From assembly GCA_046758505.1 (NCBI GenBank), contig JBHIAH010000041.1:1-22250 (forward strand): a stretch of DNA of 22,250 nucleotides, read 5' to 3'. This document shows positions 12,871-18,410 of this stretch, in pieces; position 1 is the stretch's first letter, and the number at the start of each line of letters is the position of its first letter. The notes beneath the pieces were generated by a model, which did not search any database, was not told the origin of the DNA, and saw only the letters and a program-made list of their open reading frames with translations. The position numbers and the translations under genes are program-made. Source of the DNA: Candidatus Methylomirabilales bacterium. Lineage in GTDB: Bacteria; Methylomirabilota; Methylomirabilia; Methylomirabilales; CSP1-5.

Positions 12871-13311
12871 ATGAAAGTGCTGTTCGTCTGCACGGGCAAT
12901 TCGGCGCGGAGCCAGATGGCCGAGGCCTTTGCCCGCCACTACGGGAAGGGACGGGTCGAGGCATCGAGTGCCGGCCTCGATCCCAAGGGACTTCACCCGC
13001 TCACGACCAAGGTGATGGCGGAGAAGGGGATCGATGTCTCACATCAGGAGTCCAAGGCGTTGACCGAGGAAATGGTCCAGGAGGCCGATGTCATCGTCAC
13101 CGTGTGCGGCCACGCCGATCACCACTGCCCGGCCCTTCCCTCCGGCGCCCGCAAGGTCCACTGGCCCATCGAAGACCCCGCTCTTGTGAGCGACCGCACC
13201 CCTGAGGAGGTGCTCTCGGCTTTCCGCCGAGCGCGAGACGACCTCGAGTCCCGCATCCGCAACTTCCTATCTATGCTCGGACGCGAGAACGCTGGGACGC
13301 TAGCACGCTAA
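12871..13311 (+). CDS. arsC: Thioredoxin-coupled arsenate reductase (LMW-PTP fold)
   Basis: P-loop VCTGNSARSQMAE, resolving cysteines in VTVCGHADHHCP, HWPIEDP. Confidence 0.85.
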   Translation: MKVLFVCTGNSARSQMAEAFARHYGKGRVEASSAGLDPKGLHPLTTKVMAEKGIDVSHQESKALTEEMVQEADVIVTVCGHADHHCPALPSGARKVHWPIEDPALVSDRTPEEVLSAFRRARDDLESRIRNFLSMLGRENAGTLAR

Positions 13312-13395
13312 AATGCGAGAAAGCAGAGAGACTCGAGGGTTAGGACGATAGGAGTCCCTGAAGCCAAGGGCTCTTAATGATCTCGTCTGAGCCTT

Positions 13396-13776
13396 CTAGC
13401 GTTCCAGCCCATTCGAGTCGAGCCACCGTGACAGCCACGTGCGGTTTCGGGCGATCCAGCGGTAGATCCGGTCGGCCACCCACATGCCGCCCGGCGCGTG
13501 AAAAGGGAGGGTCGTCAGGGCGGCGTTGGGGAGTCTCGCCAGGGTTTCGCGGACGGCAGCCGCTCCCGTAAAGATTTGTCCGCGCTCGTCGATCAGGTGG
13601 AGTTCGTCGCGGCAGCGCTCTCGCGAGAGGCTTGGGAAACGCGCTTCGAGGTCGGGCTCCTGGAAAGGAATCAGCTCGAGGCGCCTGCTACCGTCCCGCC
13701 GGTGGACCCACCGAGCGAAGCGCCGTCAGAGCCCTCAGTCGCCATCGTAGATGACCACCACCTTACGGTCTAGCAT
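13396..13776 (-). CDS. DCC/DUF393 thiol-disulfide oxidoreductase with UxxU motif (putative double selenoprotein, 126 aa)
   Basis: Translated by hand: MLDRKVVVIYDGD-U-GL-U-RRFARWVHRRDGSRRLELIPFQ...ELHLIDERGQIFTGAAAV...DRIYRWIARNR...LER*. TGA at 13735-13737 and 13726-13728 replace both Cys of the DCC YDGxCxxC motif; family similarity continues past them. Confidence 0.85.
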
Positions 13777-13993
13777 CCCGATCGCCCCCCGGTCGTGTCC
13801 GGTACCGCAGCCAGCCCAGCAGGGCCATTCCCAGGAACAGGGATAGGAGGGGAAACAGCACATAGTCCAGGTAGGGGACCAGCAGGGTGAGGCCGACCAG
13901 GCCGAGCACCCACGGCAAGACCGGCGTGAAACAGCACACGGCCGTGACAATGGTCCCCCACAGCCCTGTTTTGACCAATGGTTGTTTCTGCAT
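13763..13993 (-). CDS. merF: Mercury transport membrane protein MerF
   Basis: GTIVTAVCCFTPVL...GLVGL...YLDYVLFP closely matches MerF (ALCCFTPVL...GYLDYVLLP). It lacks the C-terminal Cys pair. Confidence 0.9.
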   Translation of the reverse strand: MQKQPLVKTGLWGTIVTAVCCFTPVLPWVLGLVGLTLLVPYLDYVLFPLLSLFLGMALLGWLRYRTRPGGDRDARP

Positions 13994-13999
13994 CGTTGC

Positions 14000-14290
14000 T
14001 CAATCCTTGATTTGTTCCAGGGCATAGGCCCCGAACTCGTAGGTGACGCGTTGCTTGGCACCGTGGCACTCGATGAGGTCGCCCGGCTGCACATCGTCGG
14101 GCAAGATCACCATCTCCTCGCCGACGGCACAGCTCGCCTTCTTCACCTCCGTCACGGACCAGACGCCGTCCTCCTCGCTCGCCCGGAGCGAGAGGCCGGC
14201 TCAGTTGGGGCAGTCGAAGACGTCCCCGCGTGTGATCCCAACCGGGATCCCGATCTCTTGCCCTCAGCCCTTGCAGAGTGCTGTCGGCAT
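14000..14290 (-). CDS. Small LysW-like zinc-ribbon protein with two CxxU motifs (putative selenoprotein, 96 aa)
   Basis: GGGAGAAG RBS then ATG 14290: MPTALCKG-U-GQEIGIPVGITRGDVFDCPN-U-AGLSLRASEEDGVWSVTEVKKASCAVGEEMVILPDDVQPGDLIECHGAKQRVTYEFGAYALEQIKD*. TGA at 14264-14266 and 14201-14203 complete the CxxC knuckles; the gene fills the operon gap up to merF. Confidence 0.75.
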
Positions 14291-14308
14291 CGCTCTTCTC
14301 CCCCGGGG

Positions 14309-14504
14309 CTAGCCCCGATCCGAAATTGTCCCCCGACCACGACCCTTTGAATGGCCTTGGAGAAATTGTGTGTCCAGATTGCGAGCAGCCGCTTCTGCCC
14401 CACTCCTGGGGCGTACGCAGCTAACGATGTAATCCTCCTGATTTCGGGGATGAATGCCAATTTCCGAAATTCTAGCGGTCAACCTTTTTTCGGATCGGGG
14501 CTAG
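14309..14504. mobile_element. MITE-like non-autonomous element (188 bp) flanked by CTAG
   Basis: CTAG|CCCCGATCCGAAA (14313-14325) ... TTTCGGATCGGGG (14488-14500)|CTAG: perfect 13-bp terminal inverted repeat, AT-richer interior, located at the glutaredoxin stop codon. Confidence 0.65.
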
Positions 14505-14737
14505 CCGATCCCGAGCAGCCGCTCGATCCTTCCCCGGTCAAAGCCGACGATCACCTCGCCGTCGATGACCGTGACCGGGGTCGCCCGCACCCCCAGCTTG
14601 ACCAGTTCGTCGAGCGCCTGTTGGTCTTCCCGGATATTCTTGGCGATGAACTGGACACCCTTGTGAGAAAGAAACTCTTTCTCTTGGTCGCAGGCGCCTC
14701 AGCCGGGCTGGGTATAGACGATCACCTGTTTCGCCAT
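14501..14737 (-). CDS. Glutaredoxin-like (NrdH/YruB-type) redoxin with UxxC active site (putative selenoprotein, 78 aa)
   Basis: AAGGAGG RBS then ATG 14737: MAKQVIVYTQPG-U-GACDQEKEFLSHKGVQFIAKNIREDQQALDELVKLGVRATPVTVIDGEVIVGFDRGRIERLLGIG*. TGA at 14699-14701; cis-Pro TP and IVGFD Grx motifs lie downstream. Confidence 0.9.
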
Positions 14738-14798
14738 GATTTCCTCCTTGTGTCCTGAGAGGGCGTCTGCGGGCTCCTCCGATGTGTGGGCATCGGCC

Positions 14799-15464
14799 TC
14801 ATCGCATTGGTGGTTCGGGCTCGACCAGGAGCGAGCCAAAGATTTCACGCCCGGCCTCGAAGGCCTCGAGCAGAGAGAGGACGACGCCGGAGGGCTCCCC
14901 GTGTCCCCGCTGCCAGGCCTCGAGGTGGTCACCGGTGCAGAAGAAGCTGATGTGCGGACACCGGGATTGGGCGACGGAACAGCAGTTGTCTTCTTCCGGT
15001 GTGGGAAACCACACAACGATCCCGGAAGGGAGATATCGCGCCAGGTTTTCGGGCTCTGCCCGAACCTCGACGGGCGACTCGCAGTGGGCACAGCGAGACG
15101 AGATTCCCGCGCTCTCCTGCAGCATGGCCGGTATCCCCAGGGCATCCACGGCACACAGGGCAAACACCTCTCGACCGGCGAGGAGGACCCGGTGCGGGGT
15201 CGGGGTCGCAGAGAACGGATAGGATCCCAGCACCGTTTCCACTGTCTGGTCGAGAAAGCAGAGGTCCAGATCCGTCAGTCGGCGAAGGATCTCCCGAACT
15301 CGAACAGAAGAGAGTCCACAGTGATTTTGAAGGCTCGAGACCTCTGGGATTGCCCCCGAGGCAAAGATTTGCAGGATATGGCGCCGGACGTTGTCCTCTT
15401 CCACGGTAAGCCGAGCGGCACTCAATCGGTCCGCGACGGTCTTCACGCTATCAGGGAGCAGCAT
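14799..15464 (-). CDS. merB: MerB-family alkylmercury (organomercurial) lyase
   Basis: N-terminal helical/HTH region, GSYPFSATPTPHRV, FALCAVDALG (catalytic Cys and Asp), SRCAHC, SRCPHISFF (second catalytic Cys); AGGAG RBS. Confidence 0.8.
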   Translation of the reverse strand: MLLPDSVKTVADRLSAARLTVEEDNVRRHILQIFASGAIPEVSSLQNHCGLSSVRVREILRRLTDLDLCFLDQTVETVLGSYPFSATPTPHRVLLAGREVFALCAVDALGIPAMLQESAGISSRCAHCESPVEVRAEPENLARYLPSGIVVWFPTPEEDNCCSVAQSRCPHISFFCTGDHLEAWQRGHGEPSGVVLSLLEAFEAGREIFGSLLVEPEPPMR

Positions 15465-15517: not shown

Positions 15518-15874
15518 CTACCGGCGTCGGTCGATTCGGGTACAGGCCCAGATGTGCTCGGCGTTATTCGCCACCATGTCGCGCGCCAGCTCCAGAACCT
15601 TTCGAACCCGCTTGTCGGCCACCCGGTAATACCGGTTTCGCCCCTCCCGGGAGGCGGTCACATAGCCGCACCAGCTCAAGCAGGCCAGGTGGCTGGAGAC
15701 GCGCCCCTGGGGGATGCCGAGGATTTCCACGAGCTGGGTGACGGTGCGCTCACCCTCGAGGAGCAGCTCGAGGATTTTCAGGCGGCTCGGATCCCCGAGG
15801 CCACGGAAGAACTTGGCCTCCAGCTGTAGCTGCTCCAGTTCACCGGCCGGAAGCCTATTGCTGAGTGATGACAC
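15518..15874 (-). CDS. ArsR/SmtB-family metal-sensing repressor (CmtR / actinobacterial MerR-like alpha4C type)
   Basis: FRGLGDPSRLKIL, VSSHLACLSWCGYV (CxxxC in helix 4), REGRNRYYR, and a C-terminal Cys (HIWACTR). Confidence 0.85.
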   Translation of the reverse strand: MSSLSNRLPAGELEQLQLEAKFFRGLGDPSRLKILELLLEGERTVTQLVEILGIPQGRVSSHLACLSWCGYVTASREGRNRYYRVADKRVRKVLELARDMVANNAEHIWACTRIDRRR

Positions 15875-15893: not shown

Positions 15894-15936
15894 ATTCGGT
15901 TATCCGTATATTACGCGTTCCCGTTTGGACTGTCAA
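15894..15936 (-). promoter_or_regulatory. Sigma70 promoter and candidate ArsR operator of the mer-like operon
   Basis: Minus strand TTGACA (15936-15931)-17 nt-TAATAT (15913-15908). Imperfect palindrome ATTCGG-TTAT-CCGTAT (15894-15909) overlaps the -10/+1 region. Confidence 0.75.
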
Positions 15937-16159
15937 GCATGGATGTTCCTTTTCCCTTCGAGCGGGGAGGTGTGGCGGCCGAGCAAGAGGGGGGTACTCC
16001 TGTGGAGGGCCATCCGGATTCGGGTCGTGGCGACAGTCACCTTCGCGAGCGAGACCGTCCGCCCTGGTTCACCGAGCAGACATGTCGGGGGTCGATCGTG
16101 CGCGGGGTGACGTTGGGGAGGGCGGAGGCGGAAACGTGGCGTTGTGGCGGCAAAAAATC

Positions 16160-16188
16160 TTGACACGGGTGAGGGCGGGGCATATAAG
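16160..16188 (+). promoter_or_regulatory. Sigma70 promoter for ktrBA
   Basis: A-tract then TTGACA (16160)-17 nt-TATAAG (16183). Confidence 0.6.
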
Positions 16189-16190
16189 CC

Positions 16191-17594
16191 GTGAATCAGG
16201 ACAAGGGAGCGTTGAGCCGGATTACCGGAGGCATCCACAAGGTCGCGGAGCGGCCGCTGTCCCCGCCCCGGACGCTCGCCTTGGGGTACGGCGTCTGCAT
16301 TCTGGTGGGGACCGGGCTCCTCATGCTGCCGTACGCCACGGCGGCGGGGGAGAGTCCTCGTCTGATCGAGGCGCTGTTTACGGCGACCTCCGCCGTCTGC
16401 GTCACCGGCCTCATCGTCGTTGACACCGCCCGGTTCTGGTCCCCCTTTGGTCACGGGGTGATCCTGGCCCTGATCCAGGTGGGGGGACTTGGATACATGA
16501 CCGTCTCGACCTTCATTGCCCTGCTCCTCAGGCAGCGGGTCTCCCTGCGGGAGCGGGTTGTCCTGCAAAAGGCGGTCGGGATGCTCACGCTCGACGGGGT
16601 GACCCACTTCCTCAAGCGGATCCTCCTGATTACGGCCGTGGCGGAGGGGGTGGCGACGCTGATTCTCACCCTCCGATTTGCGACGGCACATCCGATCGGC
16701 GAGGCCTTCTTTCTCGGCCTGTTTCACGCCGTCTCCGCGTTTAACAATGCGGGGTTCAGCTTGTTCTCCAACAACCTGGCAGGCTATGTGGCCGACCCGG
16801 TGGTGAACCTTACCGTGGCCTTCAGTGTCATCTTGGGCGGGATAGGCTACCTGGTGATAGGCGAGTTCCTGGAGCGGCGGCGCGAGGGTACCCCCAGGCG
16901 CCTCTCGGTCCATACCCGGTTGGTGCTGCGGGTGACGGCGGGACTCCTGGGGGGCAGCTTCCTGCTTTTCCTCCTCCTGGAGTGGAACAATGCCGCGACG
17001 CTTGGCTCGATGGCGGTTCCCGAACGGCTGCTTGCCGCGTTCTTCCAGGCGGTGACGCCGCGGACGGCCGGGTTCAACACGGTCGGCATTGGGTCTCTCC
17101 GCGAGGCCACGCTTTTTATCTTCCTCGTGCTGATGTTCATCGGGGCATCTCCGGGCGGGACGGGGGGCGGGATCAAGACCACGACCTTCGGGACAGTCCT
17201 GGTCACGCTCTGGAGGAGCCTCCGGGGGGATCGGGACGTCAACGTGTTGGGCCGTCGCCTGCCCCAGAAGGTCCTCAACGACGCCTTTATCCTCGCGAGC
17301 CTCTCCTTCGTCTATGTGGTGGTGGTCACGCTGGTCCTGATGCTGGCCGAGGGCTATCCGTATCTGTTCACACTCTTCGAGGTGACGTCGGCCTTCGGGA
17401 CAATCGGGCTTTCCACGGGCGTCCCGGGCCTGCCGACCAGCCTCTGTAGTATCTTTACCGATTTTGGTAAGATCATCATTGGCGTGACCATGCTCGTGGG
17501 CCGCATCGGTCCCGTCACGTTGGGGGCGGCCCTCTTGTCCAGGGAGCCGACGCCCAGCTATCGGCTGCTGGAAGAGCAGGTTCTCATTGGCTAG
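16191..17594 (+). CDS. ktrB: Trk/Ktr potassium uptake membrane subunit (KtrB/TrkH)
   Basis: Four pore motifs: TATSAVCVTGL, SAFNNAGF, TPRTAGFNT, FEVTSAFGTIGLS; IGASPGGTGGGIKTTT; ends VLIG. The true start may be TTG 16212 given the promoter position. Confidence 0.92.
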   Translation: MNQDKGALSRITGGIHKVAERPLSPPRTLALGYGVCILVGTGLLMLPYATAAGESPRLIEALFTATSAVCVTGLIVVDTARFWSPFGHGVILALIQVGGLGYMTVSTFIALLLRQRVSLRERVVLQKAVGMLTLDGVTHFLKRILLITAVAEGVATLILTLRFATAHPIGEAFFLGLFHAVSAFNNAGFSLFSNNLAGYVADPVVNLTVAFSVILGGIGYLVIGEFLERRREGTPRRLSVHTRLVLRVTAGLLGGSFLLFLLLEWNNAATLGSMAVPERLLAAFFQAVTPRTAGFNTVGIGSLREATLFIFLVLMFIGASPGGTGGGIKTTTFGTVLVTLWRSLRGDRDVNVLGRRLPQKVLNDAFILASLSFVYVVVVTLVLMLAEGYPYLFTLFEVTSAFGTIGLSTGVPGLPTSLCSIFTDFGKIIIGVTMLVGRIGPVTLGAALLSREPTPSYRLLEEQVLIG

Positions 17595-17726
17595 TACCGT
17601 TCCAACTTGTTGCGCCGAATACGGGCAAGGCCGGTTCCGACGAAGGAACGGGCCAAGGAAGCCAGCTGGCTTGCACTTGGCACCACACACCTCTATGCTT
17701 GGCGAGAGCAGTTGGAACGGCACTAA
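17591..17726. mobile_element. MITE/REP-like element (~128 bp) between ktrB and ktrA
   Basis: CTAG|TACCGTTCCAACT (17595-17607) ... AGTTGGAACGGCA (17710-17722)|CTAA: 12/13 inverted repeat, located at the ktrB stop codon and immediately before the ktrA RBS. Confidence 0.6.
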
Positions 17727-17735
17727 GGAGCAGGG

Positions 17736-18410
17736 ATGAGTCAGTCGCAGTTTGCCGTGATCGGCCTGGGGAACTTCGGGTACGCGGTGGCCAGGACCTT
17801 GGCGGAAAAGGGACGCCAGGTCCTCTGTATCGACCGGTGGGAGGAGCGGTTGGAACGGGTCCGCGAGATCGCGACCCATGCGGTCCAGGCGGATGCAACC
17901 GATGAGAAGGCCCTGCGGGAGGTGGGGGTGGCCGAGGTGGATTGCGCGGTGGTGAGCCTGGGCCAAGCCATGGAGGCGAGCCTGTTGGCCGCCATGGCAC
18001 TGCGCGAGATCGGGGTGAAGGAGCTGGTGGTCAAGGCGGTGAGCCCCCTCCATGGCCGCATCCTGAAAAAGCTGGGGGTCGACCGGGTGGTCTTTCCGGA
18101 GGCGGATATGGGCCGGCGGGTGGCGGAGAGCCTGGTCACCCCGTCGATCCTGGACTATCTGGAGCTGGGGGAGGGATTTGGGGTGGCCGAGGTCGGCGCG
18201 CCACAGACATTCTGGGGCAAGAGCTTGGCTGAGCTTGAGCTGCGGAGGCAGTATGGCGTCACGATCCTCGCCATCCGCCGGGCCTCCAAGGGCGAGCAGC
18301 CGAACATCGTGGCGAACCCCTCGGGGGCAGACGTCATTCGGGAGGGGGACATCCTCGTAATTATCGGGGAGAACGAGAAGCTGGAGCAACTCAGTGCGGC
18401 AGGGGAGTGA
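17736..18410 (+). CDS. ktrA: Ktr/Trk regulatory RCK subunit (KtrA/TrkA)
   Basis: FAVIGLGNFG Rossmann motif, VQADATDE, VDRVVFPEADMG, TrkA_C GKSLAELELRRQYGVTILAIRR...GDILVIIG; AAGGAG RBS. Confidence 0.92.
   Translation: MSQSQFAVIGLGNFGYAVARTLAEKGRQVLCIDRWEERLERVREIATHAVQADATDEKALREVGVAEVDCAVVSLGQAMEASLLAAMALREIGVKELVVKAVSPLHGRILKKLGVDRVVFPEADMGRRVAESLVTPSILDYLELGEGFGVAEVGAPQTFWGKSLAELELRRQYGVTILAIRRASKGEQPNIVANPSGADVIREGDILVIIGENEKLEQLSAAGE

Follow-up and report, generated by a model that had tools for sequence, protein, structure and literature searches.

The 22,250-nt contig JBHIAH010000041.1 of a Candidatus Methylomirabilales bacterium (GenBank assembly GCA_046758505.1), hereafter the window, i.e., the whole stretch of DNA analyzed here, carries on its minus strand a gene for a small DCC1-like thiol-disulfide oxidoreductase (DCC/DUF393, PF04134) in which in-frame UGA codons stand at both cysteine positions of the CxxC active-site motif. 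A preliminary description of this DNA had proposed that selenocysteine (Sec, U) occupies both positions; comparison with homologues and the complete Sec machinery encoded in the genome back this proposal. We assign a probability of roughly 85% to the reading, based on sequence comparison, that this is a real selenoprotein gene with two recoded UGAs and, consequently, a UxxU motif. That a real recoded gene lies at this locus appears highly probable, and Sec, not Cys, is likely to be the residue inserted at both UGA sites.

Read from 13776 to 13396, the gene translates as MLDRKVVVIYDGD-U-GL-U-RRFARWVHRR.... Its active-site DNA is YDGD-TGA-GGG-CTC-TGA, after which 109 codons remain, the exact value for what had been estimated as ~110. 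The coordinates given in the preliminary description, 13396..13776, are correct, with the strand now specified as minus; the plus-strand reading of this interval yields a nonsense translation and was discarded. With U read as C, as had been suggested for a profile check, the protein matches PF04134 over the full domain (positions 1-112 of the 113-position model; 89.7 bits, cut-off 27.8; E = 3.9e-25), and a raw six-frame search with stops read through gives 68.7 bits. PF04134 is the only Pfam match of the protein; NCBIfam release 20 returned 0 families at E<=0.01, and no signal peptide was seen in it. The segment D11-G-D-U14-G-L-U17 aligns with the YDGDCxxC motif of 94 homologues; that is, the position of the motif is kept, with Sec predicted in place of both Cys. 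The protein is thus like the DCC1-like oxidoreductases (PF04134; e.g., Arabidopsis DCC1 and the Bacillus YuxK-type proteins) in its full-length match to the hidden Markov model, in the N-terminal position of its D-x-x-C-x-x-C motif, in size and in the conserved C-terminal helix, and unlike them in that both cysteines of the motif would be Sec.

We followed the two UGAs through relatives of increasing distance. A first search covered 41 genomes, namely 40 relatives and the window's own. A DCC homologue was found in 10 of the 13 other genomes of the same genus, as 11 copies with 68-80% identity, all of which contain two in-frame TGAs; the genome of one of these copies (locus L015 of G007) is unpublished, and the conclusions are unchanged without this copy. 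All 12 copies, including that of the window, read YDGD-U-[G/S]-L-U and continue into an intact domain. Other families of the same order contributed two matches (34-38% identity), neither with an in-frame TGA. In the phylum, 169 of 251 genomes have a PF04134 match; among the 150 matches listed (of 201 in all), five contain two TGAs, all from the window's genus, and 145 contain none. A scan of one genome per species returned 59 loci, comprising 4 UxxU loci (from Methylomirabilales or unclassified metagenome-assembled genomes, MAGs) and 55 CxxC loci, and a scan of metagenomes returned 80, comprising 39 UxxU loci (68-81% identity), 39 CxxC loci (<=42%) and 2 that are truncated ahead of the motif. 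CxxC is found in each of the 94 more distant homologues (55 + 39). No UxxC or CxxU intermediate occurs in these 59 + 80 loci, for which the seed patterns favor the UxxU clade or YDGDC, and other lineages may differ. Thus, of the CxxC, UxxC, CxxU and UxxU forms for which a comparison of homologues had been recommended, only UxxU and CxxC were met.

The pooled loci with the full 114-nt region amount to 51 sequences, 39 of them unique, and every one of these 39 has TGA at both sites. The surrounding codons are by no means frozen. Between the two TGAs of the 39 unique sequences, the first residue appears in 7 codon forms and the second in 4, and the codons of the upstream Y, D, G and D differ synonymously. 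Pairwise comparison of the 12 genome copies downstream of UGA2 (66 pairs, Nei-Gojobori) gives a median dN/dS ratio of 0.195 (0.119-0.307) and a median dS of 0.84. At the level of sequence, these comparisons demonstrate that the DCC reading frame on both sides of the UGAs is conserved under purifying selection across this Methylomirabilis-like NC10 genus. The contigs of four sequencing runs show no variant letter over 13350-14800, at a word depth of about 20-36; these runs belong to one study labelled as hydrothermal vent metagenome, two of them may be the source sample, and contigs can drop rare variants. Taken together, the invariance of the TGAs, the purifying selection and the variant-free contigs rule out an assembly error and make decay of the gene very unlikely. 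An error at an original TGC or TGT, in favor of which nothing was seen, would be at odds with the same TGAs in 51 independently assembled loci, as with the four runs, and we regard its probability as negligible. The initial argument that two nonsense mutations are unlikely to fall exactly on the two catalytic Cys is likewise borne out by the 39 sequences and the dN/dS ratio.

Public databases hold this protein only in shortened form. At E<=1e-10 we found 23 public proteins, 19 of which belong to the DCC(UxxU) clade (71-84% identity). All 19 are truncated, with lengths of 71-108 aa and query coverages of 41-82%, and their record names are either 'DUF393 domain-containing protein' or 'thiol-disulfide oxidoreductase DCC family protein'. 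Four of the five records inspected begin with MARWVHR, four codons past the second TGA. This truncation would be expected if the locus were a pseudogene, or if it produced only a 13-residue peptide or an N-terminally shortened DCC protein starting past UGA2. Only 8 of the 39 unique sequences, however, have TTG as the codon at the MARWVHR start; the window has TTC there and contains no in-frame ATG, GTG or TTG within 26 codons after UGA2. We therefore consider the truncated gene model to be an annotation artefact. Moreover, no standard-code open reading frame (ORF) of at least 50 aa covers the DCC domain on the minus strand, and a product shortened in this way would be left without any of the active site. 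The codons on either side of the TGAs and between them are conserved at the protein level, with synonymous changes. A pseudogene or a solely truncated product is thus very improbable. Because the active site is missing from public gene models, DCC(UxxU) proteins are invisible to surveys based on annotation.

Downstream of UGA2 lies a putative bacterial Sec insertion sequence (bSECIS), a hairpin with a 6-bp stem and a GGUC loop, encoded by the A-R-W-V-H-R codons. Its apical loop is 17 nt from UGA2 and 26 nt from UGA1. Among the 39 unique sequences, the relatives all carry 5'-CCGGUG-GGUC-CACCGG-3', and only the window has U as the first base, which gives a U.G pair; the computed energy is -9.2 kcal/mol in the relatives and -7.4 in the window. 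In 43 alignment columns, the 12 copies share one amino acid for which several codons exist; just 5 of these columns show only one codon, and the hairpin accounts for 4 of the 5 (Fisher p 4e-5, a value inflated by the relatedness of the copies). When the 39 unique sequences are folded to a consensus, this hairpin alone is retained, with no second conserved structure; a long lower stem suggested by a single-sequence fold is not conserved in the consensus and was dropped. A search of 13300-15000 for Rfam SECIS families gave none, the sole match being a chance snoRNA (E 0.34). In a 2026 review, the bSECIS model specifies a stem of 4-16 bp, a loop of 3-9 nt with G in the first two loop positions, a UGA-to-loop distance of 16-37 nt and a minimum free energy of <= -7.5 kcal/mol. 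The DCC hairpin fits this model for both UGAs, with the energy taken from the relatives. The idea of one shared downstream hairpin, put forward at the outset, has therefore gained weight: it is the sole conserved structure and has both UGAs in range, and we consider it quite likely that it serves both.

The genome to which the window belongs, as contig C41, comprises 2.99 Mb in 149 contigs; it is 96.8% complete, and 39 tRNAs were found in it. This genome encodes selA, selB, selC and selD. Its one tRNA-Sec has a UCA anticodon, a length of 95 nt and a G discriminator, and scores 80 bits (gathering score 47). SelA scores 521.8 bits. SelB is recognized by TIGR00475 (333 bits, cut-off 242) in a gene cut by the contig end, and a search of the genome for the SelB wing domain PF09107 gave no match. 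SelD scores 406.8 bits and contains one in-frame TGA, at HGAG-U-ACK (contig C6:7795-8721 (+), locus L008), i.e., the selenophosphate synthetase would itself be a selenoprotein.

To this complete Sec system we must oppose the possibility that one or both UGAs are read as Cys by a SECIS-dependent tRNA-ReC or selC*, such that the protein would be CxxC, UxxC or CxxU in vivo. In a 2026 paper on UXXU [NiFeSe] hydrogenases, which itself raises this alternative, tRNA-ReC-like genes, for Cys at SECIS-associated UGA, are reported to be enriched in UXXU genomes, and, given the completeness and tRNA count of the present genome, a Cys-recoding tRNA could be unassembled. Nevertheless, only one tRNA passes the Rfam tRNA-Sec cut-off, the second-best remaining below it at 38.2 bits, and the sole tRNA-Cys(GCA) is an ordinary 76-nt tRNA. 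In addition, TGC or TGT would suffice for Cys. The glutaredoxin-like (Grx) selenoprotein gene of the same operon indeed keeps its second Cys as TGC or TGT in 10 of 10 relatives, whereas the DCC gene has TGA at both sites in all 39 sequences; this difference argues for selection on the UGA codons themselves. We thus regard insertion of Cys as improbable, and retain Sec at both sites as the likely outcome.

An AlphaFold2 model of the DCC protein, computed from the 12-sequence alignment, has a mean pLDDT (predicted local distance difference test) of 75.9, with a strand at residues 6-10 and a helix at 15-27. In this model U14 ends the loop after strand 1 and U17 lies in the first turn of helix 1, a predicted placement that is the CxxC geometry of thioredoxin-fold proteins. 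Weak Foldseek matches include mycoredoxin, thioredoxins, glutaredoxins, PDI and GST N-domains. A sequence search of the PDB found no solved DCC structure and no relevant match. From the model, the DCC protein probably adopts a thioredoxin fold.

Several of our results weigh against the reading of a two-UGA selenoprotein gene or against the elements on which it draws. Every UxxU copy comes from one genus-level clade, which means that the copies cannot be counted as independent. At -7.4 kcal/mol, the hairpin of the window itself is marginally short of the energy limit of the bSECIS model, and a single-sequence fold of 81 nt does no better than its shuffles (z 0.01). The metagenome UxxU loci were retrieved with the peptide pattern ARWVHR[RK]D, which overlaps the hairpin, and the amino-acid conservation there is thus partly selected for; the synonymous-site invariance of the hairpin is unaffected by this retrieval. 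Foldseek returned nothing for the DCC model at E<=0.001. A structural search independent of Foldseek was also weak, with a best Z of 6.0 (root-mean-square deviation 2.7 Å, 67 aligned residues), a level that may reflect no more than a common arrangement; its rows are almost all thioredoxin-fold proteins.

If both UGAs are recoded, SelB with Sec-tRNA(Sec) would read them via one minimal SECIS hairpin. The ribosome would meet UGA1 and UGA2 three steps apart, and either the same element or two successive SelB complexes would serve both. The minimal SECIS of E. coli fdhF consists of a short upper helix and a GGUC-containing apical loop, 11 nt after the UGA. The DCC hairpin is like it in the GGUC loop and in the 11-nt spacing to UGA2, and unlike it in having a second UGA 20 nt upstream of the hairpin. 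Another parallel in arrangement is provided by the UXXU [NiFeSe] hydrogenases, in which, according to the 2026 paper, the UGAs are likewise 9 nt apart, one SECIS is predicted downstream, stepwise intermediates are not clearly seen, and decoding of both UGAs by the single SECIS was proposed. The hydrogenases differ in that they are large enzymes whose Sec coordinates Ni, and in that CXXU and UXXC forms exist, whereas the DCC family was seen only with 0 or 2 Sec. The decoding question posed in the preliminary description by paired UGAs 9 nt apart had already been raised in print in 2026. The DCC gene adds a natural test case in which both UGAs are followed by just one hairpin, very small and unchanging among the relatives, and the one-Sec Grx gene, with its distinct hairpin in the same operon, could serve as an internal control, so that the spacing tolerance of SelB is testable.

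The same genome contains, on contig C10, two genes for secreted HMA-like proteins with UxxU at the metal site (C10:41082-41225 (-), GMIUPIUAYG; C10:37349-37474 (-), GMTUNFUAYG). For each gene, single-sequence folds predict one hairpin, which lies about 6 nt past the second UGA and about 15 nt past the first. If these folds are correct, the system of this organism appears to accept stems that start ~6 to 20 nt after a UGA. A third HMA-like match, on contig C11, has one TGA.

UxxU motifs had been described at the outset as rare, with eukaryotic SelL as the classic case. They are not confined to SelL: bacterial UxxU families and the UXXU hydrogenases are known, and this genome has the two further UxxU genes just mentioned. 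A table in the 2026 review names bacterial UxxU families, namely Prx-like, the NF041115 metal-binding family and FmdB. The bacterial and eukaryotic Prx-like UxxU oxidoreductases (SelL type), which review tables list as UxxC/UxxU, are like the DCC protein in having a redox motif of thioredoxin-fold type with two Sec three residues apart; they differ in family (PF00578, against PF04134 for DCC). The HMA selenoproteins of NF041115 ('UxxU_metal_bind', 'putative mercuric reductase') are alike in that UxxU replaces a soft-metal CxxC and in their mercury-related annotation; they differ in their ferredoxin-like HMA fold and in being apparently secreted, and the DCC protein is not matched by the NF041115 model. 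A Methylomirabilota MAG with 63 predicted selenoproteins has also been reported, as cited in the 2026 review. Because the organism is rich in selenoproteins, and because both UxxU motifs and the idea of a shared SECIS were already in print, the gene is less surprising than first judged.

Nevertheless, the literature full texts and the 2022 and 2026 reviews make no mention of a Sec-containing DCC, DUF393 or PF04134 family, although supplementary lists may include it. None was found either in the main text and one supplement of BSepDB, or in deep-Sep, the preprint on the Sao system (10.1101/2022.07.06.499078) and NCBIfam release 20. DCC(UxxU) is thus very probably a real, and apparently an uncatalogued, selenoprotein family. 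It is of a familiar type, with Sec replacing Cys in a redox motif, and stands out by the doubling of Sec, by its very clean single SECIS and by its operon. With it, DCC/DUF393 would join the families with Sec forms and would be among the small number whose redox motif contains two Sec.

The DCC gene is the last in an operon with the order ArsR–MerB–Grx(UxxC)–[CxxU..CxxU protein–MerF]–DCC(UxxU) (Table 1). The end of the MerF gene overlaps the start of the DCC gene by 14 nt, and three selenoprotein genes with five Sec codons are found within 1.3 kb.

Table 1. Positions of the DCC gene, its recoding elements and the adjoining genes in the window
Feature	Position	Strand	Details
DCC1-like (PF04134) selenoprotein gene	13396..13776	-	126 codons + TAG; predicted active site D-G-D-U14-G-L-U17; supported by translation, Pfam, kept TGAs and dN/dS
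UGA1, codon 14	13735..13737	-	aligns with first Cys of CxxC in homologues
UGA2, codon 17	13726..13728	-	aligns with second Cys of CxxC in homologues
Putative bSECIS	13699..13714	-	5'-UCGGUG-GGUC-CACCGG-3'; stem begins 11 nt past UGA2, 20 nt past UGA1
ArsR/SmtB-type metalloregulator, first gene of operon	15518..15874	-	NF033788, 85.7 bits (cut-off 55); PF01022
MerB-like organometal lyase	14799..15464	-	PF03243, 5.9e-37, 126.9 bits (cut-off 27)
Glutaredoxin-like selenoprotein, PG-U13-GA-C	14501..14737	-	TGA at 14699-14701
Grx hairpin GAGAAAG-AGUUU-CUUUCUC	14665-14683	-	15 nt after the Grx UGA
Small protein with two CxxU motifs (CKGU, CPNU)	14001..14290	-	TGA at 14264-14266 and 14201-14203
MerF-like membrane protein with CC pair	13763..13993	-	NF033565, 74.6 bits (cut-off 50); PF11431
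Low-molecular-weight phosphatase (LMWP)/ArsC-type, convergent neighbor	12871..13311	+	PF01451, 6.8e-24

The constancy of this arrangement was assessed in the 1.5-kb flanks of the 11 relative copies and in 40 metagenomic loci of the UxxU clade. Grx lies upstream of DCC in 10 of the 11 copies, and the full form of the operon is seen in 4; the TGA of Grx is present in 10 of 10 relatives, all of which keep its hairpin, with one base change in locus L018. Locus L022 instead contains MerF, an unassigned membrane protein, DCC and a glutathione-reductase-like (GR-like) flavoprotein. Among the 40 metagenomic loci, the CxxU protein and MerF are directly upstream of DCC in 20, and 2 more start inside MerF; Grx is directly upstream in 13, the GR-like gene with MerF in 1, and 4 are uninformative. 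In total, 30 of the 40 contain Grx, and 8 of the remaining 10 are too short to show it, while MerB is found in 19. The convergent ArsC/LMWP gene follows DCC in 27 of 40 metagenomic and 10 of 11 genome loci. Because all these loci come from one genus-level clade, synteny is weak evidence for function.

The composition of the operon suggests two possible roles for the DCC protein. In the first, the Cys pairs of MerB or MerF would hand Hg(II) or a different soft metal to the U14/U17 selenol pair. We favor metal handling over a purely redox role, because a metalloregulator opens the operon, MerF overlaps the DCC gene, and catalogued double-Sec motifs are mostly metal sites. The MerB-like lyase aligns with the solved MerB2 structure 5c17 (6.9e-21) and keeps C-A-V-D and the second Cys, which we take to be the catalytic positions of MerB. 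From this operon context, we rate a role in mercury or soft-metal handling as somewhat short of an even chance. At its most specific, DCC(UxxU) would be the cytoplasmic end-point of a selenium-based pathway for organomercury and Hg(II) that has no MerA: Hg(II), set free by MerB or imported by MerF, would pass in order of rising affinity from Cys pairs to CxxU/UxxC proteins and then to UxxU, to be held as a bis-selenolate, with the part of the MerA N-terminal domain being played on a thioredoxin-type fold, and both Sec would be inserted via one minimal SECIS by a SelB complex that tolerates the 9-nt difference in spacing. This complete scheme is speculative and, in all its parts together, rather unlikely.

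A number of observations weigh against the link to mercury. The MerB-like lyase is below the NCBIfam equivalog cut-offs (104 vs 193 and 91 vs 200 bits). No MerA scores above its cut-off in the genome, where the best candidate reaches 398.6 bits against 454.45 and is better explained by NF004991. Seven loci reach far enough upstream to show MerB but do not contain it, and 13 loci are without the MerF module. In the operon there is neither a MerA gene (in a genome of the completeness given above) nor a MerR-family regulator, the regulator being of the ArsR/SmtB type. A search of the genome for the MerT family (PF02411) gave no match; a Mer transporter is nonetheless represented, by MerF (NF033565).

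In the second role, the U14/U17 pair would cycle between diselenide and diselenol and be reduced by the Grx selenoprotein. That is, the two-Sec protein would be a general disulfide/diselenide reductase and partner of Grx that binds no metal directly, and it might re-reduce the ArsC-type protein or other thiol proteins. Grx and DCC are indeed the most constant pair at these loci; they occur together without MerF or the CxxU protein in 13 loci, and MerB is missing in 7, as noted above. The usual convergent neighbor is of the ArsC/LMWP type, and Arabidopsis DCC1 is reported to reduce a protein substrate. A GR-like flavoprotein, moreover, stands beside DCC in L022 and L157 (L022:78-1466 (-); L157:3-920). 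It has a GGTCALRGC redox motif and no C-terminal Cys pair, adjoins MerF and DCC(UxxU), and is a candidate electron donor for DCC; no orthologue was found in the window's genome, where the best match has 30% identity. Conversely, MerF, when present, overlaps and directly precedes the DCC gene, which suggests coupling; a metalloregulator stands at the head of the operon, and double Sec is otherwise catalogued mostly at metal sites (NF041115, hydrogenase). One-genus synteny is weak for both roles alike. We consider a reductase without direct metal binding to be possible, if unlikely.

The canonical mer operon shares MerF with the operon described here, and differs in that no MerA is found above cut-off and that the regulator is ArsR/SmtB and not MerR. 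The Sao system (SaoL; Haft & Gwadz, 10.1101/2022.07.06.499078) is alike in having a MerB-like lyase in an operon of small selenoproteins, including a thioredoxin-like UxxC protein. The window is unlike it in that its MerB reaches 68 bits where the SaoL model requires 140 and carries CC in place of CU, and in that the Sao ABC-transporter genes are missing. The Sao preprint contains 0 mentions of DCC, MerF or Methylomirabilis. The presence of MerB and MerF without MerA beside five Sec codons suggests that some anaerobic methane oxidizers handle mercury or soft metals with selenols, and such selenol-based metal handling would bear on Hg–Se antagonism in sediments and groundwater.

Further observations concern the other genes of the operon and its surroundings. 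The Grx-like selenoprotein is below the NCBIfam cut-offs for YruB (73.8 vs 88.55) and Uxx-star (55.7 vs 66). In the 210-nt gap between the Grx and CxxU-protein genes (14291-14500), a 7-bp inverted repeat (ATTTCGG at 14464-14470, CCGAAAT at 14441-14447) could be an operator or an internal promoter. In contigs of runs X1 and X3, the sequence is also found joined directly across about 155 nt (14328-14483), probably from a strain or relative without this spacer. Upstream of the operon, an 818-aa ORF at 15933-18389 (-), which has no Pfam match, overlaps the TrkH gene at 16191-17594 (+) and is probably a shadow ORF of GC-rich DNA. The CxxU protein has a zinc-ribbon/LysW-like N-terminus (NF041070, 38.8 bits, below cut-off) and belongs to no Pfam family. 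Its homologues in 69 of 251 phylum genomes contain 0, 1, 2 or 3 in-frame TGAs, i.e., a graded Cys/Sec series unlike the all-or-none pattern of DCC, and it is possibly another uncatalogued selenoprotein family.

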